From contig JAGOQF010000003.1 of NCBI GenBank assembly GCA_017991615.1, positions 285 through 64,284 on the forward strand: 64,000 bases of DNA, read 5' to 3'. The translations under genes and the position numbers were made by a program. The notes beneath the pieces are model-generated. The model saw nothing but the letters and a program-made list of their open reading frames with translations, was not told the origin of the DNA and made no database searches. Positions 819 through 23,646 of this stretch are shown piece after piece. Every line of letters starts with the position of its first letter. Position 1 is the first letter of the stretch. This DNA is from Candidatus Shapirobacteria bacterium. Its GTDB lineage: Bacteria; Patescibacteriota; Microgenomatia; UBA12405.

Positions 819-1076
819 GTGAAAATATATCTTTCTTCAAATTTTCTTAAAGAATATAAAAAAGTTTCAAAATTAATTAAAAATAAGCTAGAAGTTAAGG
901 AAAAAATTTTCCGAACCAACCCGTTTGATCCTTGTCTTAAAACTCATCCACTTACAGGAAAATTAAAGGGCTTTTATTCTTTCTCAATAGATTACCATTA
1001 TAGAATTGTTTTTTCTTTTGAAAATGAAAATGAAATTTGGTTTCATTCCATCGGCACCCATGCTATATATAAATAA
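819..1076 (+). CDS. RelE/ParE-family toxin (mRNA interferase fold).
   Basis: 85 aa with a GTG start. HPLTGKLKGFYSFSIDYHYRIVF...IGTHAIY matches the RelE/YoeB-like core. Its stop overlaps the dut start as TAATG. Confidence 0.6.
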   Translation: MKIYLSSNFLKEYKKVSKLIKNKLEVKEKIFRTNPFDPCLKTHPLTGKLKGFYSFSIDYHYRIVFSFENENEIWFHSIGTHAIYK

Positions 1077-6494: not shown

Positions 6495-7349
6495 ATGAAA
6501 AAAGATTTTTATGAAGTTTTGGGTGTCTCCAAAAACGCCACCAAAAGTGATATCAAAAGCGCTTATCGTAAATCGGCTCTTAAGTATCATCCTGATCACA
6601 ACAAAGCTGCCGACGCCGAAGAAAAATTCAAAGAAATCAACGAAGCTTACGAAGTTTTAAGTAACGACCAAAAAAGAGCCGCTTATGATCAATTTGGTCA
6701 CGCCGCTTTTGACCCCAACGCTGGACCGGCTGGTGGTCGAACTTACACTCAACAAAGTGGTCCTTTTAACTTTACTTATACCCAAAGCAGTGGTAACGTC
6801 GGTGGTGCCGACTTTGATTTTGGCGGTTTTAGCAACCCTTTTGATATTTTTGAACAATTTTTTGGGGCTGGTTTTACCGGACGCAGTCAAGGCAAACGCC
6901 TAGAGACTTACAAAATCAGCATTTCTTTTTTGGAAGCCGCCAAAGGAGTAGAAAAGGAATTCAATATTGATGGTAAACGTCGTAAAATTAAAATTCCTGC
7001 CGGTGTTGATGATGGTCAAAGAATCAGATTTAAAGATTTTATTTTATATATTGATGTTCTTCCCGATAAAGTTTTCAAACGTGAAGGTAACGACATTTTT
7101 GTCACTATCAACCTTACTTTTTCTCAAGCAGTTTTGGGTACTGAAATTGAAGTGCCAACTCTCACCGAACCGGTTAAAGTCAGAGTCAAAGCCGGCACTC
7201 AACCCAACACTCTTATCCGTCTTCGTGGTCGTGGTATCAAGCAAGTTTCTGGCTTTGGTATTGGCGATCTTTATATTCGTCTTATGGTTGAAATTCCCAC
7301 TCGTCTCACTCCTCGTCAAAAGGATCTTGTCCGCCAGCTTGGTTTATAA
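6495..7349 (+). CDS. dnaJ: DnaJ-class co-chaperone lacking the Cys-rich zinc-finger domain (CbpA/type II-like).
   Basis: J-domain with HPD (YHPDHNK). A G/F-rich region follows, then C-terminal substrate-binding domains. No CxxCxGxG repeats are present. Confidence 0.8.
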   Translation: MKKDFYEVLGVSKNATKSDIKSAYRKSALKYHPDHNKAADAEEKFKEINEAYEVLSNDQKRAAYDQFGHAAFDPNAGPAGGRTYTQQSGPFNFTYTQSSGNVGGADFDFGGFSNPFDIFEQFFGAGFTGRSQGKRLETYKISISFLEAAKGVEKEFNIDGKRRKIKIPAGVDDGQRIRFKDFILYIDVLPDKVFKREGNDIFVTINLTFSQAVLGTEIEVPTLTEPVKVRVKAGTQPNTLIRLRGRGIKQVSGFGIGDLYIRLMVEIPTRLTPRQKDLVRQLGL

Positions 7350-7357
7350 TAGAACCA

Positions 7358-7966
7358 ATGAAATTGGAAACTCTAGTTATCGGCACTCACAATCCCGCTA
7401 AACTTGATTATTATCAAAATTTATTAACCCCTCTTTCCAAAAAAATAGTTGGCCTAAAAGATATTGGAATTGATCAAAAACCTACCGAAACTGGTGATAC
7501 TGCGGAAGAAAATTCTCAAATTAAAGCCAAGTTTTATTCTCAAAGAACAAATTTGCCTGTCTTCTGTGAGGATGAGTCCTTATTTGTTGATTTTCTCCCG
7601 CCATCAGAACAACCCGGAGTTAATGTCAGACGGATTAATCATAATTTAGACGCCACCGATAGTGAATTATTTGATTATTGGGAAAACGTAATTAAAAATG
7701 TTCCCGAAGCTAAACGCACCGGTTATTGGCGGATTGCTTATACCTTAATGTTAAACAATAAACTAAATACTGTTTCTTTTGATCGTCAAATTAAGTTTTT
7801 TTATCCCGCTTCAGATACAAAAATTTCTGGTTGGCCTTTGAATAGCCTTCAAGGTCCGGCCAAGTTCAATAAACCATTTATTGAAATGACTTCAGATGAA
7901 AAAAATCTTATTCAAAAAGAAGAAAATCAATTGATTATCAAAAAACTAATCAGCCTGTTCAAATAA
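7358..7966 (+). CDS. Ham1/RdgB-family non-canonical purine NTP pyrophosphatase (divergent).
   Basis: VIGTHNPAKL corresponds to ATGNxxK. ETGDTAEENSQIKA corresponds to ExGxTFxENAxxKA. CEDESLFV corresponds to DDSGLxV. QPGVNVRR corresponds to the GxPGVYSAR region. Confidence 0.55.
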   Translation: MKLETLVIGTHNPAKLDYYQNLLTPLSKKIVGLKDIGIDQKPTETGDTAEENSQIKAKFYSQRTNLPVFCEDESLFVDFLPPSEQPGVNVRRINHNLDATDSELFDYWENVIKNVPEAKRTGYWRIAYTLMLNNKLNTVSFDRQIKFFYPASDTKISGWPLNSLQGPAKFNKPFIEMTSDEKNLIQKEENQLIIKKLISLFK

Positions 7967-14278: not shown

Positions 14279-16465
14279 ATGAAAATGTATACACAAGATA
14301 TTTTGGTGGGTGACAAAAAAATCAGTCTTTCCACTGGTAAACTCGCTCCTCAAACCAACGCTTCAGTTGTCGCTCAATTTGGCGATACCGTGGTTCTAGC
14401 CACTGTTTTAATGGGAAAACTAGACGAAACTAAAGATTATTTTCCTTTGTCTGTTGAATTTATTGACAAACTTTATGCCGGTGGCATTATCAAAGGTGGT
14501 AAATGGATCAAACGCGACGGCGCCCCTTCCGATACTGCCATTCTTTTTGGCCGAATTATCGACCGTTCCCTTCGACCTCTGTTTCCACAAGGGTTTTTAA
14601 ACGAGATTCAAATCATTACTACCGTCCTTAGCAATGACAAAAATCACGATGTTGTTATTCCCGCCTTTACCGCTGCCGCCGCAGCTTTGGCAATTTCTGA
14701 TATTCCCTTCAACGGTCCCGTTTCTGCCGTCAGAGTTGGCTATGTTGACGATAAATTAGTTGTCAATCCAACCTTAGATCAGTTGAAATCATCTTTATTC
14801 GATCTTTTGGTTTGCACCAGTCCCAAAGGTGTTAATATGATCGAAGCCGACGGTAATATCGTCAAAAACGATTTAATGCTTTCTGCTATTGAATTGGCTA
14901 AAACTACCGGCGATCAAATCAATGCTCAAATTAATGAGTTTGTCGCCAAAGCCGGCAAAACCAAAATTATTTTTGAACCTGCCGGACCTTCTGTCGATCT
15001 TATCAAAGATGTTGAATCCAAAATCAAAACTGATATTAAAAAATTCTTTGACGATGGTGTCGATGGCGCTCATATGATTGGACAGGAGACCATTATTGAA
15101 AAAGTCAAGCAAATTTATCAGGACAAAATTGATTCCGAAGAAGTTTCTTTAAACCATCTTATTGCTGCCGTCGATACTATTCTTAAAGCTCATGTTCGCC
15201 AACAAACTCTTTCTGGTCATCGTTATGATCGTCGAAAATTAGACGAGATTCGACCTCTAAACGTGGAAGTCGGTGTTTTGCCTACCACCCACGGTTCGGC
15301 CTTGTTTGAACGGGGACTAACCCAAGCTATCACTGTTACCACTCTAGCTCCTTTGGCTGAAAAACAATATCTTCAAGATAGTAATGGTGAAGCTACCAAA
15401 CGCTATATCCACTATTACTCGGCTATGCCTTTCTCCACCGGTCAAACCGGTCGTGTCGGTCGTCCTGGTCGTCGGGAAATCGGTCATGGAGCCTTGGCTG
15501 AAAAAGCCTTGGTTCCGGTCATTCCTAGCGAATCTGAATTCCCTTACACTATTGTTTTAACTTCCGAAGTTTTGTCTCAAAATGGTTCTTCTTCCATGGC
15601 CTCTACTTGTGGCTCCACTATGTCTCTTATGGACGCTGGTGTTCCCATCAAAGACAAAGTTGCCGGTATTTCCATTGGTCTTATGGCTGAAACCGACGAC
15701 AAATATATTTTGTTAACTGATATTGCCGGTATTGAGGATCATTTTGGTGATATGGATTTTAAAATCACTGGGACTCGCGATGGTATCACTGCTATCCAAT
15801 TGGATATCAAACGTGAAGGTCTGACTTTACAAATGATTCGTGATACTTTTATCGCTTCCACTAAAGCTCGACTTCAGATTTTGGATAAAATGGATTCAGT
15901 TCTCGCCGCGCCCAGGTCCGAATTATCACCCTTAGCTCCAAAAGTAAAATTAGTCCAATTACCTGAAGACAAAATTGGTGATGTTATTGGTAGTGGCGGT
16001 AAAACTATCAAAGCTCTAATGGATAAATATCAGGTTCAAATTGATATTGACGATTTTGGTGCCGCTTCTATTTCTTCCCAAAACCAACAATCAATTGAAG
16101 ATGCCGTCTATGAGATTGAATCTATGATTAAAGAGGTTCAGATTGGTGAAGAATATTCAGGCATCGTTACCAGAGTTGAAAACTATGGTGCTTTTGTGGA
16201 ATTCTTACCCGGTCGCGAAGCTTTACTTCATGTCTCCGAAATGTCTGGTGGCTTTTTATCCGATCCTTCAACCATCATTAAAGTTGGTGATAAATTAAAT
16301 GTCAAAATTGCCGGCTTCAACGACAATCATCAGATTAAATTATCTTCTCCTGAGTTCAAAGCCGCTCACCCCGGTCAACCTCGAGAAAATAACAACCGAG
16401 CTCAGTTTGCTTCCAAACCGGAATTTCGCAAATTCAACCCTAACTTTTCCAAGCGACCCAAATAA
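14279..16465 (+). CDS. pnp: Polynucleotide phosphorylase.
   Basis: Two RNase PH domains, plus KH and S1 domains. The FSTGQTGRVGRPGRREIGHG motif is present. Confidence 0.95.
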   Translation: MKMYTQDILVGDKKISLSTGKLAPQTNASVVAQFGDTVVLATVLMGKLDETKDYFPLSVEFIDKLYAGGIIKGGKWIKRDGAPSDTAILFGRIIDRSLRPLFPQGFLNEIQIITTVLSNDKNHDVVIPAFTAAAAALAISDIPFNGPVSAVRVGYVDDKLVVNPTLDQLKSSLFDLLVCTSPKGVNMIEADGNIVKNDLMLSAIELAKTTGDQINAQINEFVAKAGKTKIIFEPAGPSVDLIKDVESKIKTDIKKFFDDGVDGAHMIGQETIIEKVKQIYQDKIDSEEVSLNHLIAAVDTILKAHVRQQTLSGHRYDRRKLDEIRPLNVEVGVLPTTHGSALFERGLTQAITVTTLAPLAEKQYLQDSNGEATKRYIHYYSAMPFSTGQTGRVGRPGRREIGHGALAEKALVPVIPSESEFPYTIVLTSEVLSQNGSSSMASTCGSTMSLMDAGVPIKDKVAGISIGLMAETDDKYILLTDIAGIEDHFGDMDFKITGTRDGITAIQLDIKREGLTLQMIRDTFIASTKARLQILDKMDSVLAAPRSELSPLAPKVKLVQLPEDKIGDVIGSGGKTIKALMDKYQVQIDIDDFGAASISSQNQQSIEDAVYEIESMIKEVQIGEEYSGIVTRVENYGAFVEFLPGREALLHVSEMSGGFLSDPSTIIKVGDKLNVKIAGFNDNHQIKLSSPEFKAAHPGQPRENNNRAQFASKPEFRKFNPNFSKRPK

Positions 16466-16493
16466 ATAATAAATAAATAATGTATAATTAGTT

Positions 16494-17000
16494 ATGAAAG
16501 CTAAATTAAACTTAGAAAATAAGAATCTTTTTAATGTTGTTATTGTATTATTCCTCTTGATAGTCATTGTTGTTTTGGTGGTAACTAAATATCAAACTTT
16601 GCCCAACACTCAAAGCTTAGATCAAGAAAATCTAAAAAAATTAGCTTCCCGAGAAATTGACAAAGCCCTTCATTTTCATTTTCACTTTACCGCTGACACA
16701 GATAAACCATATCAATATAAACCTAGTGATCTTGACTACGAAACTCAAATCATAAAAATCTCACCAGATCATAATGCCGTTATTGGTAAATATAGGACTA
16801 GCGATTCTTGGTTTTGGTTAGGCTGGAAAGAAGATAATGGATCTTGGAAAATATTAGTTGATCTCGACGGATATGATTGCAAGGATTTAGATACTATTCC
16901 TCAAAAATACTCTGATTTCTTTTATGAACAAGTCCACCCATATTCTCCATTAGATAGAAAATGTTTTGATTGGGATAAACATTATAAACAGAGAAAATAG
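16494..17000 (+). CDS. Hypothetical membrane-anchored protein.
   Basis: N-terminal TM segment (VVIVLFLLIVIVVLVV). W/Y-rich ectodomain. No recognisable domain. Confidence 0.45.
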   Translation: MKAKLNLENKNLFNVVIVLFLLIVIVVLVVTKYQTLPNTQSLDQENLKKLASREIDKALHFHFHFTADTDKPYQYKPSDLDYETQIIKISPDHNAVIGKYRTSDSWFWLGWKEDNGSWKILVDLDGYDCKDLDTIPQKYSDFFYEQVHPYSPLDRKCFDWDKHYKQRK

Positions 17001-17047
17001 TTTTCTAAGACTAAGATATTATCTCTAAAATAGATTATACTTTTCAT

Positions 17048-18109
17048 ATGGATTCTAGTGTTTTGACTACTCAACAAGCTATCAAGACTCTTCGTCAAAA
17101 GGTTAATTCTGTCAAGCTACCGGAAAATTTACTTACCAACTTAGAAGAACTTTTTTCTCAGCTAGTCATCAATTCTCGTAATGAGGAATCCTTTTGGCAA
17201 AATTATCAATCTGCATCAAAATACATCAGTTATCTTATCAGTGTTCCTTGGTTTGCTCAGACTCAAGATATTCTTGACCTCCAGTTTGCTAGAGAAAAAC
17301 TCAACGAGCAACACTATGGCTTAGACGCTGTCAAGGAACGTCTGTTAGAATATATTTCCGTTCTTGCCCTCCAAAAAAATCGTCATCCAGACAATCCTAT
17401 CAAAGCTCCAGTTTTATTGTTTGTCGGTTTGGTTGGCACCGGCAAAACTACTATGGCCAAATCTATTGCCAACGTTTTAGGTCGACAGTTAATCCGAATT
17501 CCTTTTGGTGGCTTAGGTGACCCGCTTTATCTCCGTGGTCAGTCTCGAATTCACCCTGAAGCCGAACCTGGACAAATTATCAAAGGTCTAATCAATTCTA
17601 AAAGTATCAATCCGGTAATTCTTTTAGATGAAATCGACAGAGTTGCCGACGATGCTCTCAACACCATTATGGGTGTTTTAGTAGAGTTGCTTGACCCAGA
17701 GCAAAATAATCACTTTGTTGACCATTACATTGATTATCCAGTCGATCTGTCTCGAGCCATTTTTTGTGCCACTTGCAACAACACTTCTCGAATTGCCACC
17801 GCTGTCATGGATCGACTTGAGGTTATTCAAATGCCCTCTTATACTGACGAAGAAAAAATAGTTATCGGCCGTGACTATATTTTCCCCAAAGTTATCAAAG
17901 AAGCCGGCCTCCGCCCCGAAGAAATCAAAATTGACAATTCAGTTTGGGATCAAATTGTCCGTCCTTTGGGTTTTGACGCCGGAGTTCGGACTCTTCAACG
18001 CAATATCGAAGGTTTATGCCGCAAAGTTGCCAAAATGATTTTTGAAGGCAAAACCAAACAGGTTGTGGTTGACGAGTCCAATGTTAAACACTATCTGCCC
18101 CAATGGTAG
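17048..18109 (+). CDS. Lon-family AAA+ ATPase module without a protease domain.
   Basis: VKERLLEYISV, LLFVGLVGTGKTTMAKSIANVLGRQLIRIPFGG, VILLDEIDRV, LVELLDPEQNNHFVDHYIDYPVDLSRAIFCATCN and AGVRTLQRNIEGLCRKVA align with the Lon ATPase core. The ORF ends where the Lon S16 protease domain would begin. Confidence 0.65.
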   Translation: MDSSVLTTQQAIKTLRQKVNSVKLPENLLTNLEELFSQLVINSRNEESFWQNYQSASKYISYLISVPWFAQTQDILDLQFAREKLNEQHYGLDAVKERLLEYISVLALQKNRHPDNPIKAPVLLFVGLVGTGKTTMAKSIANVLGRQLIRIPFGGLGDPLYLRGQSRIHPEAEPGQIIKGLINSKSINPVILLDEIDRVADDALNTIMGVLVELLDPEQNNHFVDHYIDYPVDLSRAIFCATCNNTSRIATAVMDRLEVIQMPSYTDEEKIVIGRDYIFPKVIKEAGLRPEEIKIDNSVWDQIVRPLGFDAGVRTLQRNIEGLCRKVAKMIFEGKTKQVVVDESNVKHYLPQW

Positions 18110-19884
18110 ATACAAATCAAAAAATTATGATTAAAAATAACAAAAATTTTAAACCGAGAACCAGCTTTGCTGGCGCTCAAAACCAGGTTAGAGAATTCAA
18201 ATCTAACCAAGATTCTGTCAGAATTAGTTCCCTGGGAGGTTTTGGTGATGTCACTCAAAACATGTTCGTTTACGAATTTATCCCCAACGGCGACACTTCC
18301 AAAAGTCAAATAATTATTGTTGACTGTGGTGTTGGTTTTCCTGAAGAAGATATTTTCGGCGTTGACATGCAAATCCCCGACACTCATTATTTAGAAGACA
18401 AAAAAGATCGTATTTTAGGTATCTTTATTACCCACGGTCATGAAGATCATATTGGTGCCGTTAAATTTGTTCTACCAGTTTTAGGTGAAAAAATTCCTAT
18501 TTTTGCTCCCAAACTTGCCGCCGCCTTTATCGAATCGCGTCTTAGTGAAGTCAATCAGCGAGCCATTATCAACGTTTACGAAGATGGTATTCCTATTCAA
18601 AAAGGAGTTTTTAATGTCGATCCGATTCGGGTGACCCATTCCATCCCTGATACTTTTCATTTCGCTATTACTACTCCTATTGGTATTTTTTACCACGGTT
18701 CCGATTTTAAGTTTGATGTCTTCCCGCTTGACGGTAAACAAGCCGATCTCAGTCATATCGCCCGCATTGGTGAAAAAAAAGTTGTGGCTCTTATGTCTGA
18801 CAGTCTTGGTTCCGATCACGAAGGTTATTCTCCTTCCGAAAGTTCCATTGCCGAAAATTTTAAATATGAGATTACCTTTGCCAAAGGTCGAGTCTTTGTT
18901 ACCTCAATTTCTAGTAATATTATTCGTTGGTCTCAAGCGATTGAATATGCCAAAAGTGTCGGCCGTAAAATTGTTATTGTTGGTTTTTCTGTTGACAAGG
19001 CTATTGGTATTGCCAAAGATCTCAATTATCTTAGCCTCAATGATTCTGACATTGTTCCCCCTGAACGAGCCAAAAATTTCCCCGACAACAAACTGATTTT
19101 TCTGGTTGCTGGTTTTGCTGGTCAGCCAGATTCTGCTCTCAGCAAAATGGTTATGGGTAAACATCGTATCAAAATTAGATCTGGTGATAAAGTCATCTTT
19201 TCTTCACCCGATTATATTCCCGGCACTACCTCAAATATCTACACCATGATTGACACTCTTTCCAAACTTGGTGCTGAGGTTGTTTATGGTGAGAAAGAAG
19301 AACTTCATGTCTCCGGTCACGGTTATCAAAAAGAACACGCTCTTCTTATTAGTCTGGTCAAACCCAAATATTTACTGCCTATTGGTGGTAATTTCCGTCA
19401 TATCAAGCAATATCAATCTATGGCCAAAAAACTTGGTTATGCCGAAGAAAATGTTATTTTGCCTGATTTCGATGCCACTGTTACTTTTTATAGCAACGGC
19501 AAATTTGATACTAATTTTCATATTCCCATCCGCAAAGTTCTCATTGATGGTTTTGGTATTGGCGATGTCGGTACCACTGTTCTCCGCGATCGCAGACTTC
19601 TGGCCGGAGATGGTATGTTTTCTGTAGTCATTCTGATCAACAAAGCCACCGGTCAAATGGAAAAGGAACCGGTTGTCTTAAGTCGCGGATTTGTCTTTGT
19701 CAAAGAAAATACCGACCTTATCAACTATCTCAAGCAAGAAACTGTTAAAAAATTCAACGAGGCCACCAGTAGTCCGGCCAATCTTGATTATATCCGCGAA
19801 GAAATTCAAGCTCATATCGAAGAAATTATTCACCAAAAAACCGGCCGCCAACCCATGGTCTTACCCTTAGTCATCGAAGTCTAA
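18103..19884 (+). CDS. rnj: Ribonuclease J (metallo-beta-lactamase/beta-CASP RNase).
   Basis: HGHEDHIG motif, beta-CASP region and the RNase J C-terminal domain are present. The true start may be a few codons downstream of 18103. Confidence 0.85.
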   Translation: MVDTNQKIMIKNNKNFKPRTSFAGAQNQVREFKSNQDSVRISSLGGFGDVTQNMFVYEFIPNGDTSKSQIIIVDCGVGFPEEDIFGVDMQIPDTHYLEDKKDRILGIFITHGHEDHIGAVKFVLPVLGEKIPIFAPKLAAAFIESRLSEVNQRAIINVYEDGIPIQKGVFNVDPIRVTHSIPDTFHFAITTPIGIFYHGSDFKFDVFPLDGKQADLSHIARIGEKKVVALMSDSLGSDHEGYSPSESSIAENFKYEITFAKGRVFVTSISSNIIRWSQAIEYAKSVGRKIVIVGFSVDKAIGIAKDLNYLSLNDSDIVPPERAKNFPDNKLIFLVAGFAGQPDSALSKMVMGKHRIKIRSGDKVIFSSPDYIPGTTSNIYTMIDTLSKLGAEVVYGEKEELHVSGHGYQKEHALLISLVKPKYLLPIGGNFRHIKQYQSMAKKLGYAEENVILPDFDATVTFYSNGKFDTNFHIPIRKVLIDGFGIGDVGTTVLRDRRLLAGDGMFSVVILINKATGQMEKEPVVLSRGFVFVKENTDLINYLKQETVKKFNEATSSPANLDYIREEIQAHIEEIIHQKTGRQPMVLPLVIEV

Positions 19885-19970
19885 TCATTATTTTTAGACT
19901 ATCTCTAACAACCCTGACTGTTTAATTATTTTTCACTCACAATAGTAATTGTAGTTTTTAGTAAATTAAA

Positions 19971-20495
19971 TTAATCAGCATCTGCATAAAAACAATATTT
20001 TTTGCAGTGAAGACAGCGAAAAAGATATCCAGCAATGTAACCACCTATTTTTAAACTTTGTTTGACATCTTCAAAATCACACTCTTCTGGGTAATTTTTT
20101 TTATAATATTCTTCTATTTCTTTTTCTATTCCTAATTCTACGATATCATCCCAAGAAACTTCTCCCAAAAAATCGCAGAAATCGTTACAATGACTTAACC
20201 AATGACTCTCTTGTATTGAATTGAAACCCGGAGTTCGATATAACAATTCATTTTTACTTTCATCACTATCAACTTCACATTCATAATCATAAACAATTGT
20301 AAATTCACCATCGTATTTTTTGGCGGCGAAACCACTAGCAATGCAGTTTGGACAAATATTTTCCAATGTATCCTGACTATGAAAAGGTCCTATGTAGGAG
20401 TAATCTGAATGTTTACCACAAACATCACAAATAATTTTCTTTGATATTATTGATCCAGTTTTTAATGGCGTTAGTGCATTTAATATTTCAGTCAC
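19971..20495 (-). CDS. CbrC-family (UPF0167) protein.
   Basis: ICDVCGKHSDYSYIGPF and CPNCIASG match the CbrC N-terminal zinc-binding pattern. The gene is low-GC relative to its flanks and starts with GTG. Confidence 0.6.
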   Translation of the reverse strand: MTEILNALTPLKTGSIISKKIICDVCGKHSDYSYIGPFHSQDTLENICPNCIASGFAAKKYDGEFTIVYDYECEVDSDESKNELLYRTPGFNSIQESHWLSHCNDFCDFLGEVSWDDIVELGIEKEIEEYYKKNYPEECDFEDVKQSLKIGGYIAGYLFRCLHCKKYCFYADAD

Positions 20496-20596
20496 TTTTC
20501 ATTATTGTTTCTTCTTTTTTTTCTTATATTTTCTCACTTTTATTTATTCTTTTTCACTCTTCTTAATATCATGAAAAGTGAAGATAAGTGATAAAT

Positions 20597-20640
20597 AGTG
20601 AGAAAAAGATACCAAAAGGTATCTAATAAGGTATCTAAAT
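20597..20640. promoter_or_regulatory. Operator-like module: AGTGAGAAAAAG, then palindrome AGATACC-aaaa-GGTATCT, then a direct repeat GGTATCTAA 12 nt later.
   Basis: Seen directly in sequence. AGATACC is at 20607-13. GGTATCTAA is at 20618-26 and 20630-38. The module lies upstream of cbrC-like on the minus strand and downstream of the methyltransferase gene. Confidence 0.5.
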
Positions 20641-20646
20641 TTTATA

Positions 20647-21453
20647 TTATTTTTTATATCCAATATACATTGCATGACCACAAGTATCTATGATTGATGG
20701 ATTTTCTGATGTTTCGTTAATTAAATCAACAACTTTATTAAACATATTCTTATCCTCTATATTATATAGTGAATCTTCTTTTTCATATCCAAATCCACGA
20801 ATTGATCTAATTGTGATTTTTTCAAATCCACTATTACTGAATAAATTTTCTATTTCATTTATTGTTGGATAATATCCTTCTTGGAATCCTTTATCTGATG
20901 AATTATTAAATTTACCAGATTTAAATACTTCGGATAAATTATTTATATCTACTTGTTCAGGATGTCTAAAATATCTATCTACTATTGCAATACTACCAGA
21001 AAGATATGGAATAAAACTTGCAAATATTTTTCCTCCTGGTTTTAATACTCTGCTTATTTCTTTTATACATTGTTCTCTTTCTGATTTTTCAAGCAAGTGA
21101 TATAAAGGTCCAAATAATAATACAACATCAAATTGATTGTTTTCATACATACTAAGATTTGTAGCATTAACTACATCACAAGATATAATGTTTTGATTAT
21201 TTTGTTTCTTAGCTTGATTAATCAAATCTTCGGATAAATCAGCTAAGTATACTTTATAACCTTTATCTGCTAATGGAAATGAATAAACACCTGCTCCACC
21301 ACCTAAATCTAAAATTACTCCGTTTGCTGGTAAATTATTTCCCAATATATTCATTGTCATATCATATTCTAACTTTCCACTATTATCATTTTGCAATCTA
21401 TTCTTTTCATCAAAATTTTTATAATAATTTTTTACTTTATTAAAATCTGTCAT
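20647..21453 (-). CDS. Class I SAM-dependent methyltransferase.
   Basis: VILDLGGGAGVYSFPLA is motif I (GxGxG). An acidic motif II (KVYLADLSEDL) and motif III (VVLLFGPLYHL) follow. The gene is very AT-rich (roughly 28% GC) with a strong SD (AGGAGTG). Confidence 0.8.
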   Translation of the reverse strand: MTDFNKVKNYYKNFDEKNRLQNDNSGKLEYDMTMNILGNNLPANGVILDLGGGAGVYSFPLADKGYKVYLADLSEDLINQAKKQNNQNIISCDVVNATNLSMYENNQFDVVLLFGPLYHLLEKSEREQCIKEISRVLKPGGKIFASFIPYLSGSIAIVDRYFRHPEQVDINNLSEVFKSGKFNNSSDKGFQEGYYPTINEIENLFSNSGFEKITIRSIRGFGYEKEDSLYNIEDKNMFNKVVDLINETSENPSIIDTCGHAMYIGYKK

Positions 21454-21479
21454 ATTATCACTCCTATATTAATTATATC

Positions 21480-21505
21480 AAAAAAAGACCAATTTTGGTC
21501 TTTTT
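21480..21505 (-). terminator. Bidirectional A/U-flanked hairpin AAAAAGACC-aatttt-GGTCTTTTT downstream of the HIT gene.
   Basis: 9-bp stem with A-run and T-run flanks. On the minus strand the stem is followed by T7. Confidence 0.45.
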
Positions 21506-21518
21506 AATCATTTTTCAG

Positions 21519-21564
21519 GGTATCTAAAAGGTATCTAATTCACGATTTTTCACTTTTTCTCACT
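21519..21564. promoter_or_regulatory. Second copy of the operator-like module: GGTATCTAA-aa-GGTATCTAA, then TTTTTCACT and TTTTTCTCACT.
   Basis: GGTATCTAA is at 21519-27 and 21530-38. TTTTTCACT motifs are at 21546-54 and 21554-64. The module is upstream of the methyltransferase gene on the minus strand. Confidence 0.5.
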
Positions 21565-21593
21565 TTGTAATCTTCTAAAACCCTTGATTTTAC

Positions 21594-21692
21594 TTATTTT
21601 CCGCAACACTGCTTATATTTGCGTCCAGAGCCACATGGATCTGAATGATATTTAAATATAGGCAAACTTGTCTCTTTTTTATTATTTTTCAT
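21594..21692 (-). CDS. Unannotated 32-aa ORF encoding a SEC-C zinc-binding motif peptide: MKNNKKETSLPIFKYHSDPCGSGRKYKQCCGK.
   Basis: I translated the minus strand by hand. It is too short for the provided ORF track. DPCGSGRKYKQCCGK matches the SEC-C consensus CPCGSGKKYKxCCG found at the SecA C-terminus and in YecA/YchJ. No obvious SD is present. Confidence 0.4.
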   Translation of the reverse strand: MKNNKKETSLPIFKYHSDPCGSGRKYKQCCGK

Positions 21693-21740
21693 TTTTTATT
21701 AAATTTATAAAATGTACTATTGCTGAGTAATTGTAGCAAA

Positions 21741-22187
21741 TTATAACTGTAAATTTTTTAATAACATTTTCTTCATTTTTTTTAAACCTTTTTCTGTCGG
21801 CTTATATTTTTCATTACACCTGATTTCTTTTTCAATCGCCCAAATTGCTGTTTCCGGTTTTGGGTCAGTTTTATATCTTGGAATCAAATGCCAATGTAAA
21901 TGTGAGTCTGAATTACCCAACAACTCATAATTCAGTTTTTTAGGTTTAAAAGTTTTTATTACCGCTTCAGCCACTTTTGCCATTTCTTCTAAAAATAATT
22001 TTTGTTTATCTCCTAATTTATATAATTCATCAGTATGAATTTTGGAAATAAAAATAGTGTAGCCGTAGAAATATTGATAATCCGCCAACACTACGTATCC
22101 ACTTTTTAATTCTTTTACAAAATAAATATTTTTATTTTGTTTAATTAGTTCGATTCTCTGACAAACTGGACAATTATCGTTAATCAT
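21741..22187 (-). CDS. HIT-family (histidine triad) nucleotide hydrolase/transferase.
   Basis: HLHWHLIPR is the HxHxHxx triad. A CxxC lies near the N-terminus. The gene is AT-rich. Confidence 0.8.
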   Translation of the reverse strand: MINDNCPVCQRIELIKQNKNIYFVKELKSGYVVLADYQYFYGYTIFISKIHTDELYKLGDKQKLFLEEMAKVAEAVIKTFKPKKLNYELLGNSDSHLHWHLIPRYKTDPKPETAIWAIEKEIRCNEKYKPTEKGLKKMKKMLLKNLQL

Positions 22188-22224
22188 AATTAATATTTTA
22201 TCTCTTTATTCAGTATAATAAGCC

Positions 22225-23646
22225 ATGACTAAAAAATTTATCAAACTCAAGTCAGAGGACTTGTCAGAATGGTACAACGACGTTGTTGTCAAATCCGGTT
22301 TGGCTGATTATGCCCCTGTCAAAGGTTGTATGGTTATCCGTCCCTACGGTTACGCTATTTGGGAAAGAATCCATAATTTTATGGATCCTTTTATCAAAGA
22401 AAAAGGTGTTCAAAATGCCTATTTTCCCATTTTTATTCCCGAAAATTTTTTAAAAAAAGAAAAAGAACATGTTGAAGGTTTCGCTCCTGAATTAGCCGTT
22501 GTCACCCATGGTGGTGGGGAAGAGCTCACCGAAAAGTTGGTTATTCGTCCCACTTCGGAAACCATTATGTATGAAATGTACAAAAAATGGACTCAAAGCT
22601 GGCGCGATTTGCCGGTTATGATGAATCAATGGTGCAACGTCGTTCGTTGGGAAAAACGCACTTATCTGTTTTTGCGAACTTCCGAATTTTTGTGGCAGGA
22701 AGGCCATTGCGCTCACACTACCGAATCAGAAAACCAAGACATGGTCAAATGGGCTCTTGATCTTTACAAAAAAACTTATCGTGATTTGTTATCGATTTAC
22801 GGCATCACCGGTGTCAAAAGTGATTCTGAAAAGTTTGCCGGTGCTGGCAAAACTTACACTATCGAAGCACTTATGCCCAACGGCAAGTCGCTTCAAGCCG
22901 CCACTTCTCACGATTTATCCCAAAATTTTTCAAAATCCTTTGACTGGTCGGTCCAAGATCAAAATGGTCAAAAACTTTATCCCTACCAAAACAGTTGGGG
23001 ACTTTCCACTCGCGCCATTGGCAGCTTAATTATGGTTCACGGTGACGACAATGGTTTAGTCTTTCCATCTCAAGTTGCTCCAGTTCAAATTGTTATTATT
23101 CCTATCCCTGGTCACTCCAAAGCCAAAACTCTGGCCGAAAATGTTTTTACCGATCTAAAAACTAAATATCGTTGTCAACTTGACCTTATCGACAATGAAA
23201 CTGCCGGATTTAAGTTTAATCATTGGGAAATGAAAGGAGTCCCTTTGCGAATCGAAATTGGTGACAAAGAAGCTGACAACAATGCTGTAGTTTTATGTCG
23301 TCGTGACAATCTCCAAAAACAAACCGTTTCAGTTTCTGATTTGAATAAAAATATTACTCAAATTTTGGCAGATATTCAAGCCACCCTCTTGAAAAAACAT
23401 CAAGAGTTCACTCAACAAAACACTCATACCACCGATTCTTATGATGAATTCAAAAAAATCATGTCAACCACTCGCGGTTTTGTTTTAGCTCATTGGTGTG
23501 AAAACCCTCAGTGTGAAGCCGAGATTAAACAAGATACCAAAGCCACCACCCGCTGTTTACCTGATGGTCAACCAGAAGAGAAGGGTGTTTGTATTCACTG
23601 CGGTCAACCATCAAAACATCGTTGGTTATTTGCGCAAAGCTACTAA
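22225..23646 (+). CDS. proS: Prolyl-tRNA synthetase, archaeal/eukaryotic-type (class IIa with C-terminal zinc-binding domain).
   Basis: The length (473 aa) and the C-terminal CIHCGQP motif match the archaeal-type architecture, as does the absence of a bacterial-type insertion domain. Class II motifs are present. Confidence 0.9.
   Translation: MTKKFIKLKSEDLSEWYNDVVVKSGLADYAPVKGCMVIRPYGYAIWERIHNFMDPFIKEKGVQNAYFPIFIPENFLKKEKEHVEGFAPELAVVTHGGGEELTEKLVIRPTSETIMYEMYKKWTQSWRDLPVMMNQWCNVVRWEKRTYLFLRTSEFLWQEGHCAHTTESENQDMVKWALDLYKKTYRDLLSIYGITGVKSDSEKFAGAGKTYTIEALMPNGKSLQAATSHDLSQNFSKSFDWSVQDQNGQKLYPYQNSWGLSTRAIGSLIMVHGDDNGLVFPSQVAPVQIVIIPIPGHSKAKTLAENVFTDLKTKYRCQLDLIDNETAGFKFNHWEMKGVPLRIEIGDKEADNNAVVLCRRDNLQKQTVSVSDLNKNITQILADIQATLLKKHQEFTQQNTHTTDSYDEFKKIMSTTRGFVLAHWCENPQCEAEIKQDTKATTRCLPDGQPEEKGVCIHCGQPSKHRWLFAQSY

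Follow-up and report, generated by a model that had tools for sequence, protein, structure and literature searches.

The genome of a Candidatus Shapirobacteria bacterium, a member of the Candidate Phyla Radiation (CPR), carries between its rnj and proS genes a segment of low-GC DNA that is probably best explained as a Firmicute-derived cbrC gene split by a small methyltransferase cassette, which opens with a copy of the 3' end of secA and now resides in the Shapirobacteria chromosome. The DNA analysed, referred to here as the window, is a stretch of 64,000 nucleotides; its source genome is assigned to Candidatus Shapirobacteria, the nearest named genomes being Shapirobacteria metagenome-assembled genomes (MAGs). 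An earlier note on this DNA had described four minus-strand open reading frames (ORFs) between rnj and proS as a set of four co-acquired genes. The ORFs are present and their Pfam families match the labels given to them (CbrC, methyltransferase, SEC-C and HIT), but they do not constitute one module, as two of them are halves of a single gene and the HIT gene is a resident of the locus. The genes, the ORFs and the two parts of cbrC are as follows.

18103-19884, plus strand: rnj (NCBI product MBP6866918)
19971-20495, minus strand: UPF0167/CbrC ORF, 174 aa (Pfam)
20647-21453, minus strand: class I S-adenosylmethionine (SAM) methyltransferase ORF, 268 aa (Pfam Methyltransf_11/25)
21594-21692, minus strand: SEC-C micro-ORF, 32 aa (Pfam SEC-C)
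21741-22187, minus strand: HIT ORF, 148 aa, low GC (0.27); Pfam HIT (PF01230), 27.2 bits against a cut-off of 21.5 (NCBI product MBP6866922)
22225-23646, plus strand: proS (NCBI product MBP6866923)
21636-21692, minus strand: 5' part of cbrC, codons 1-19 (MKNNKKETSLPIFKYHSDP), placed by the family N-terminus and the alignment with an intact homologue, L107
19971-20465, minus strand: 3' part of cbrC, codons 20-183 (LKTGSII...ADAD, then stop), Pfam PF03691, 151.8 bits

A cbrC gene in two halves

Proteins of the UPF0167/CbrC family have N-termini of the form M..LP.FKYHPDPL.TG (FKYHPDPLxTG; for example P0124, MEDNTKKSDLPKFKYHSDPLKTKS..., MEDNTKKSDLPKFKYHSDPLKTK), and the start of the micro-ORF, MKNNKKETSLPIFKYHSDP, matches it. 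The 174-aa CbrC ORF starts with MTEILNALTPLKTGSII and is without the first nine positions of the Pfam hidden Markov model (HMM), of which it covers positions 10-174. The intact homologue L107 aligns (blastn) with both halves, its positions 62-138 matching window positions 21710-21636 and its positions 136-426 matching 20468-20169, with the break at a single point. When micro-ORF codons 1-19 are rejoined to LKTG..., the resulting 183-aa protein scores 169.7 bits over the entire Pfam model (HMM 1-174 of 174), compared with 151.8 bits for the 174-aa ORF. These alignments show that a single UPF0167/CbrC gene is divided between the SEC-C micro-ORF and the CbrC-like ORF; it is interrupted after codon 19 by 1170 nt and does not form a single reading frame. 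The last ten codons of the interrupting cassette (GTG ACT ... CCA) run in frame into the rest of cbrC, and this accounts for the 174-aa 'CbrC-like' ORF.

The micro-ORF matches the SEC-C model (PF02810) at 28 bits, with a cut-off of 20.4; it reads DPCGSG, so that the first Cys of CPC is absent and the full CxC...C(C/H) ligand set is not present. Its sequence shows it to be a chimera, in which cbrC codons 1-19 are joined to the cassette's mimic of the secA end, rather than an independent gene: the cbrC stub looks like a SEC-C micro-protein because the cassette opens with a secA-end copy, which is read through to PCGSGRKYKQCCGK and a stop codon.

The closest relatives of this CbrC are Firmicute proteins, and the nearest database DNA match to the gene is 76% identical in nucleotide sequence (contig L108). 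It shares with E. coli CbrC (YieJ) the Pfam family, the FKYHPDP N-terminus and the CxxC...CxxC motifs, but scores only 123.1 bits against the E. coli CbrC equivalog model (NF040891), for which the cut-off is 300 bits. E. coli CbrC has been linked to colicin E2 tolerance (PMC3599342); the window gene is interrupted, and therefore no such role can be transferred to it. It is probably inactive in its present host; translation from the GTG start could at most yield a protein whose N-terminus has been replaced.

The cassette within cbrC

The interrupting DNA is a discrete unit, and two features define it.

20469-21638, minus strand: integrase-less mobile cassette, 1170 nt, delimited by homology to a unit in contig L096 that starts and stops at the unit borders
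21594-21638, minus strand: copy of the last 45 nt of secA (CCATGTGGCTCTGG...TAA, encoding PCGSGRKYKQCCGK and stop), the att-like 5' end of the cassette

The cassette consists, in order, of the secA-end mimic, a spacer, the methyltransferase gene, a second spacer and a tail ending ...AATGCACTAACG. The four nucleotides CCAT are present at both of its junctions (21635-21638 and 20465-20468), giving a 4-nt overlap in addition to the 1170 nt; with the junction point marked by a slash, the left junction reads TCAGATCCA/TGTGGC and the right junction CTAACGCCA/TTAAAA, and the wider sequences joining cassette and cbrC are TCAGATCCATGTGGCTCTGG on the left and CTAACGCCATTAAAAACTGG on the right. Window positions 20465-21638 match positions 5826-6988 of L096, a Firmicute-like contig of GC 0.276, at 92.4% nucleotide identity over 1174 nt. 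The matching stretch takes in the final 45 nt of the micro-ORF, the two spacers that carry the motifs, the methyltransferase gene and the first 31 nt of the 'CbrC' ORF, and it begins and ends exactly where cbrC sequence stops and resumes. The closest DNA relative of the cassette, at 92%, is thus much nearer than that of cbrC, at 76%.

The secA-end copy provides both the 'SEC-C motif' and the stop codon of the micro-ORF. The same 45-mer is the true 3' end of secA, and also the opening of each following unit, in L096, in two further contigs (L101 and L109) and at about 45 metagenome loci. The L096 unit has the 45-mer at both sides (5826 and 6985), whereas in the window only the 5' copy is present and the 3' end joins cbrC through CCAT. 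The methyltransferase is the only cassette ORF with a family match, and the unit contains no integrase or transfer genes. A search in distant mode gave no match to the cassette DNA among 72,556 plasmids or 50,697 phages, and a plasmid or phage origin was set aside, two viral-contig matches to the junction pattern being without the 45-mer and attributable to chance. In L096, the junction that follows the methyltransferase unit (6958-7029) forms a 23-aa ORF, MTEILNALMPCGSGRKYKQCCGK, whose first eight codons are those that open the truncated CbrC ORF of the window.

Composition and extent of the foreign segment

The segment that is specific to this strain is larger than the cassette and includes both parts of cbrC.

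19903-21727: strain-specific insert, 1825 nt with a GC content of about 0.26, situated between rnj and HIT, whose 3' ends converge

Composition was compared with 41 core genes of the window, which have a GC content of 0.383 +/- 0.032 and a GC content at third codon positions (GC3) of 0.323 +/- 0.031. The GC content is 0.312 in the CbrC ORF, 0.254 in the methyltransferase and 0.273 in HIT, and the corresponding GC3 values are 0.183 (z = -4.6), 0.104 (z = -7.2) and 0.235 (z = -2.9); the low GC reported earlier is thereby borne out, at GC3 0.10-0.24 in the three larger ORFs against 0.32 +/- 0.03 in the core. The lowest-GC 1.8-kb stretch of the whole window falls in the rnj-proS region. The accompanying claim of rare codons holds for the methyltransferase and CbrC ORFs, where ATA makes up 50-53% of Ile codons compared with 5% in core genes and where AGA makes up 86% of the methyltransferase Arg codons compared with 19%, but it fails for HIT, in which ATA usage (8%) is host-like.

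Comparison with relatives delimits the insert. Look-ups with exact protein sequences gave many contigs from the same organism together with two informative relatives, L104 and L012. A 183.8-kb JGI contig (L104) is about 91% identical in nucleotide sequence to the window on both flanks, and has in place of window positions 19903-21727 only 346 nt encoding an 89-aa ORF, with HIT still adjoining proS. The insert is also absent from L012, in which the stop codons of rnj and HIT are 1 nt apart. L012 is 99.87% identical to the window up to the last ~130 nt of rnj and ~82% identical beyond, and is either a recombinant strain or a chimeric assembly; the switch in identity lies at about 7650-7782 (window 19750-19884), and the changes within the end of rnj are synonymous only. 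Eight more distant Shapirobacteria (L016-L022 and L081) keep the order PNPase, Lon-like AAA, rnj, gap, proS, ftsK and HTH, and none has CbrC, the methyltransferase or the micro-ORF in the rnj-proS gap. The comparison of rnj-proS synteny that the earlier note had proposed therefore finds these three absent from all ten relatives (L104, L012, L016-L022 and L081). The gap has varied contents of its own: an ORF for an IS200-like Y1 transposase in L017, a 76-aa Cys-rich ORF in L018 and L019, three ORFs in L081, the 89-aa ORF of L104, which has a signal peptide, and nothing in L016.

The HIT gene lies outside the insert. Its protein carries HLHWHLIP, in agreement with the HxHxHxx motif, and L104 and L012 have the gene in the corresponding position, encoding 146 aa in L104 and 147 aa (89.5% amino acid identity) in L012. 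Because these two keep HIT there without the rest of the island, and because its Ile codons are host-like, HIT is an older resident of the species group. Horizontal acquisition, claimed earlier for all four ORFs, is therefore strongly supported for 19903-21727, with its atypical composition, its absence from relatives and its 92.4% nucleotide match to a contig of GC 0.276, and is contradicted for HIT.

That the insert might be an assembly chimera or contamination, with Firmicute reads misjoined into a CPR contig, is barely conceivable. Composition does change abruptly at the insert, and L012 illustrates that mosaic contigs occur in these data sets, but the whole 2340-nt region, both junctions included, recurs with 100% identity in 13 contigs obtained from different samples with different assemblers; the chimeric ORF joining cbrC and cassette occurs on 18 contigs, every one at the same Shapirobacteria locus, and the NCBI MAG record has the same gene order. 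Such identity across 13 independent assemblies shows that the insert did not arise as an artefact of assembly.

Arrays of secA-end units in low-GC Firmicutes

In L096 the 45-nt piece (CCATGTGG...TAA, encoding PCGSGRKYKQCCGK and stop) is the true 3' end of secA, and five further copies lie downstream, each starting exactly at CCATGTGG, in the same orientation and preceded by unrelated sequence. The units so delimited carry APH with DUF3800, the methyltransferase, a GIY-YIG/NUMOD3 endonuclease, an HTH protein, and a tryptophanyl-tRNA synthetase (TrpRS)-like gene with a T-box leader, this leader being the only match in an Rfam scan of the conserved tails. The GIY-YIG/NUMOD3 gene (L096 7284-8183) is free-standing, homing-endonuclease-like, and forms a unit next to the methyltransferase unit. 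L101 and L109 have the same array structure with other cargo. The head of an array is secA, preceded by hpf.

A metagenome scan with the conserved tail and junction pattern yielded 63 loci, about 45 of which carry true copies of the 45-mer, up to four per locus, and several of which begin at a real secA end. The true-copy loci have a GC content of 0.24-0.31, save one at 0.36. One array-bearing secA belongs to NCBI 'Clostridium sp. CAG:524', other names being Clostridiaceae and Clostridia, and pairwise identity among the SecA proteins of five contigs with arrays is 59-75%; the arrays belong to gut and rumen low-GC Firmicutes. Their cargo includes nine GNAT families, APH, extra aminoacyl-tRNA synthetases, peptidase S51, methyltransferases, queuosine salvage, and a VanR/S-VanW-Ddl cluster. 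The extra synthetases include one of TrpRS/TyrRS type (330 aa) with its own T-box leader, found in cassettes behind secA at L096 9668-11008 and L169 11850-12842; its 90% cluster has 1490 members, and it may be an antibiotic-resistant spare synthetase. A unit with a 216-aa ORF and a queuosine-salvage gene is 96-97% identical in three contigs, its left border being the 45-mer; it follows secA immediately in one of them and comes after other units in the remaining two, while the secA genes themselves are only 70% identical.

Among 82 distinct 45-mers that are not part of secA, the minor-allele fraction is 0.30 at codon position 3 and 0.06-0.08 at positions 1 and 2. Most copies are in no long ORF, and 47 of the 82 still encode PCGSG[RK]KYKxCC[GS][KR] followed by a stop codon. 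On this pattern, the codon-like variation is the imprint of having been, or of readiness to be, a secA end, and it would arise because an integrating unit brings its own replacement secA end.

The layout of the units is regular. A tandem pair of 9-mers with an 11-nt period lies about +100 to +127 from the unit start, and a second pair with a 12-nt period lies about 129 nt before the unit end (about 170 nt in the TTAGATACC class). Within a unit the two pairs usually consist of the same 9-mer, and different units have different ones (TTAGATACG, TTAGATAAG, TTAGATACC, TGTTTCCA and others).

A bulk Pfam scan of 125 cargo representatives gave no recombinase among the top families, and targeted scans then found a truncated Tn916-type integrase, a 185-aa ORF with Arm-DNA-bind_4 and Phage_int_SAM_3 domains directly after the 45-mer in L122, L153 and L136. 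In a Clostridiaceae MAG, a degenerate 45-mer and a tandem ACTGTCAACGG pair are followed ~175 nt later by a related integrase of 317 aa (P0239); upstream of this integrase is an integrative mobilizable element (IME) with a second integrase and a Mob_Pre relaxase, and in L179 the same integrase is followed by prfB. The VanR/VanS-VanW-D-Ala-D-Ala-ligase cluster of L122 (317-5107), like its equivalent in L153, lies directly after the truncated arm-binding integrase and secA-end copy, and a van-like element therefore uses the same site.

Repeats and putative signals of the cassette

The spacers and tail of the window cassette contain the following features, together with an isolated motif copy outside it.

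21540-21564, minus strand: three (A/C)GTGA repeats with a 10-nt period, adjoining the upstream tandem pair, with TTTTTCACT copies at 21546 and 21556
21519-21538, minus strand: tandem pair TTAGATACC x2 with an 11-nt period, ~98 nt after the cassette start, exact GGTATCTAA matches
21472-21505, minus strand: hairpin AAAAAGACCAATTTTGGTCTTTTT (21482-21505), then an extended -10-like TGATATAAT (21472-21480), and GGAG before the methyltransferase ATG
20618-20638, minus strand: tandem pair TTAGATACC x2 with a 12-nt period, ~170 nt before the cassette end
20529-20606, minus strand: imperfect 39+39-nt palindrome in the cassette tail, with TCACT/AGTGA repeats at a 10-nt period; the repeat copies listed earlier at 20529-20608 lie here
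19929-19937, plus strand: isolated TTTTTCACT copy downstream of the cbrC stop, outside the cassette

The repeated TTTTTCACT motifs that had been pointed out earlier are real. TTTYTCACT occurs at 19929, 20530, 20550, 20597 (minus strand), 21546 and 21556, six of the seven matches in the whole window, and this clustering exceeds chance (mean 0.21 in shuffles of the region, none of 2000 reaching 6). Their proposed role as island boundaries does not stand, since all but the 19929 copy lie within cassette spacers and are conserved in the Firmicute copy in L096; the copy at 19929 may be due to chance. A motif that the earlier note had missed, GGTATCTAA, occurs exactly four times in the window, as two tandem pairs that flank the methyltransferase (20618/20630 and 21519/21530), with 0.02 occurrences expected and none of 2000 shuffles reaching 4.

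These pairs follow the layout of the array units. The window cassette has its TTAGATACC pairs at +98 and -170, and a pair of the same position and period as that at 21519-21538 is present in most of the 52 array units analysed. From this arrangement the TTAGATACC pairs are candidate arm-type sites, with 21519-21538 on the P' side and 20618-20638 on the P side; the inner copy of the latter pair is also part of a terminator hairpin (20607-20624). The (A/C)GTGA repeats are conserved in L096, as is the palindrome (L096 6848-6925). The palindrome is the counterpart of the AAGTGC repeats with a 10-nt period that lie at -72 in other array units, in place of which the window cassette has AGTGA repeats. 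The hairpin at 21482-21505 is a terminator-like site, the features of 21472-21505 are conserved in L096, and the TGATATAAT region is a putative promoter.

The methyltransferase cargo

The 268-aa protein matches Pfam Methyltransf_11/25 at 69.7 and 68.9 bits, above the cut-offs, and has the glycine-rich motif LDLGGGAG at residues 48-55. Its AlphaFold model has a predicted local distance difference test (pLDDT) score of 90.5, and the best Foldseek match is 2avn (TM1389), with a TM-score of 0.78/0.84; it is a Rossmann-type class I SAM-dependent methyltransferase. No named substrate family (UbiE/UbiG, CmoM, ArsM or another) could be assigned, as all NCBIfam matches are far below their cut-offs, and the fold neighbours in the PDB are only uncharacterised or heterogeneous small-molecule and tRNA methyltransferases. 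Relatives with 95%, 93% and 81-83% amino acid identity are found in contigs of GC 0.25-0.29, the 95% match being P0002 in L096.

The gene is intact and has its own hairpin, extended -10-like TGATATAAT, GGAG and downstream terminator, all conserved in L096, and it is probably the only working cargo in the present host. A 'frameshifted' copy in L010 was considered as a case of decay and rejected, as its three homopolymer indels are in a contig of 4x coverage and are probably sequencing errors.

Origin and movement of the cassette

We propose that each unit would be the remnant or satellite of an integrative element that has the 3' end of secA as its attachment site (attB), that it carries its own replacement secA end, and that its movement would depend on Tn916-type tyrosine integrases provided in trans. 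The tandem 9-mer pairs and the AGTGA repeats at a 10-nt period would be integrase and accessory-protein binding sites of former attP arms. One unit would have been excised and have integrated anew at a pseudo-site within cbrC (GATCCAT, similar to the GATCCATGT of secA; the full pseudo-site sequence is GATCCATTAAAA), and the disrupted cbrC would then have reached the Shapirobacteria chromosome by a route that was not site-specific. The window copy, at a secondary site and with both unit ends intact in a target that shares only CCAT with it, points to discrete site-specific movement and provides the strongest evidence at hand for the movement of units as discrete elements.

Several observations weigh against this scheme. 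No recombinase is present among the ORFs in or near the insert, and no repeats are seen at its borders (19903 and 21727), where they might have marked the route of entry into the CPR genome; of the usual marks of a genomic island, the segment has the composition, the absence from relatives and the closer match in a distant genome, and is without a border mobility gene, tRNA or repeat. A search for the chimeric ORF found the junction of cbrC and cassette only at the Shapirobacteria locus, and a Firmicute donor with a disrupted cbrC is therefore hypothetical. The taxonomy of L096 is drawn from composition, gene context and the relatedness (59-75%) of its SecA to those of named genomes, and the database relatives of the 185-aa integrase are mostly truncated. 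The arm-binding integrases are linked to the units by their position next to 45-mers. The shared 45-mers and conserved tails could also allow homologous recombination between units in arrays.

This last point leads to a distinctly unlikely alternative, in which units move by homologous or illegitimate recombination through shared repeats and the 9-mers are transcription-factor sites or parts of terminators. The 45-mers together with ~120-nt conserved tails do give enough homology for exchange between arrays, one tandem copy belongs to a terminator hairpin, and most of the linked integrases are decayed. However, the ends of the window cassette are unit borders in a non-homologous target that shares only the 4 nt CCAT, and homologous exchange therefore cannot yield these junctions, while the pairs keep constant distances from CCATGTGG and constant periods, which together with the adjacent arm-binding integrases fits an att-site architecture. 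The order of events proposed above, with the cassette entering cbrC before transfer to the CPR, is more likely than the reverse, in which an intact cbrC was acquired first and the cassette integrated inside the CPR cell with a Firmicute-type integrase. This reverse order, somewhat unlikely, draws on the restriction of the junction to Shapirobacteria contigs and on the much closer relatives of the cassette (92%) than of cbrC (76% to L108); against it, the window contains no integrase and no second 45-mer, both parts share the same extreme donor-like composition, and a single import needs fewer events.

Other readings of the locus fare worse. A self-splicing intron or similar element that left cbrC functional would explain why the 1.17-kb insert sits inside a coding sequence, in the orientation of its host gene, and carries an ORF, but it is extremely improbable: Rfam covariance models gave no group I, group II or other structured-RNA match at E <= 1 across 19500-22500, the same unit lies outside genes in the tandem arrays, and it brings its own stop codon and terminators. 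The view that cbrC, the methyltransferase, the SEC-C protein and HIT are one co-acquired stress or defence module, raised in the earlier note, took account of their common strand and low GC and of the colicin tolerance tied to E. coli CbrC. It is very improbable, as HIT is found on its own in L104 and L012 and resembles the host in ATA usage, two of the members are pieces of one disrupted gene, the methyltransferase is elsewhere alone or with unrelated neighbours, and the set of four is found at no locus but this one. In PADLOC only the generic SAM domain of the methyltransferase matches (mad2, residues 40-152), HIT has no match and CbrC reaches only E = 0.0086; with cbrC interrupted and not the equivalog of the E. 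coli gene, the suggested defence or stress role is not upheld.

Relation to known mobile elements

Accretion of cis-mobilizable elements (CIMEs) and integrative and conjugative elements (ICEs) has been described for ICESt1 and its CIME at fda in Streptococcus thermophilus (review PMC5704250), and the ssrA islands of Dehalococcoides provide a comparison case of accretion at the 3' end of a conserved gene (PMC3146451). The array units behind secA resemble these CIMEs and ICE/IME accretions in having as boundaries direct repeats that reproduce the target gene's 3' end, in lying head-to-tail without integration or transfer genes, and in having tyrosine integrases, often decayed, beside some of the repeats. 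They differ in their target, secA, which is not mentioned in the review (PMC5704250); in being very small (0.7-6 kb, often one gene) and numerous, with an integron-like look; in having as their repeat a 45-nt coding mimic; and in that the window unit lies at a secondary site inside another gene, in another phylum.

The arrays are also reminiscent of integron cassettes, with promoter-poor or single-gene units in the same orientation at one site, accessory or resistance-type cargo (GNATs, APH, methyltransferases), and the potential for secondary-site insertion. They differ in having CCATGTGG rather than GTTRRRY at the junction and no attC or IntI beside the array, and in using the 3' end of a housekeeping gene, arm-type tandem repeats and Arm-DNA-bind_4 integrases. 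An integron was accordingly rejected, the junction before CCATGTGG and the array head (secA preceded by hpf) being incompatible with attC, IntI and attI. The staphylococcal cassette chromosome (SCC) elements at the 3' end of rlmH (orfX) are similar in forming composite arrays with recombinase-less remnants and target-end repeats, but they use serine recombinases (Ccr), have site repeats of ~15-20 bp and are much larger.

No description of secA as an integration site, or of a secA-end cassette array, was found in the literature, and the arrays look like an undescribed variant of site-specific accretion. We offer tentatively the broader and possible reading that they are a gene-capture platform, not described before, in low-GC Firmicutes of the gut and rumen that have small genomes, with a Tn916-type integrase, a coding attB formed by the SEC-C end of secA, and arm-type repeats, and with an integron-like outcome. 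If so, the window would demonstrate that one unit is able to leave its place and insert elsewhere as a discrete element, and a nearly unaltered unit in Shapirobacteria would mark recent flow of DNA from Firmicutes to a CPR episymbiont, and might point to the host of the symbiont.

The locus itself is modest, a broken gene and an imported methyltransferase. Its annotation as 'genes' for a CbrC-family protein, a SEC-C micro-protein and a methyltransferase should be replaced by one broken gene and one imported cassette, and they should not be credited with a function in colicin tolerance or defence. The 92% DNA identity pins a recent transfer from a low-GC Firmicute to the CPR, where gene donors are rarely so clear, and the locus led to widespread and very regular arrays of mini-elements at the 3' end of secA, with resistance-type cargo (GNATs, APH, aminoacyl-tRNA synthetases and a van-like cluster).

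Other features of the window

The proS slot varies among relatives. The window, L104, L018, L020 and L081 have a prolyl-tRNA synthetase (ProRS) of the archaeal/eukaryal type, with a ProRS-C_1 domain, whereas L012 (8267-9493), L016, L017, L019 and L021 have a bacterial-type ProRS of ~410 aa with only ~25% identity, which suggests that among these related Shapirobacteria one aminoacyl-tRNA synthetase has replaced another in situ.

Upstream of rnj, a Lon-like ORF (17048-18109, 353 aa) has AAA+ and Lon-lid domains and is without a protease domain; it overlaps the start of rnj by 7 nt and is kept in all Shapirobacteria relatives compared. It is preceded by a 168-aa membrane-anchored ORF (16494-17000, GC 0.31) with no family match, which is absent from L104, where window positions 16460-17035 are reduced to ~35 nt, a second nearby strain-specific indel. 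Two small plus-strand ORFs near the left end of the window (819-1076 and 2592-2930) have a GC content of ~0.26-0.27, as low as that of the island.

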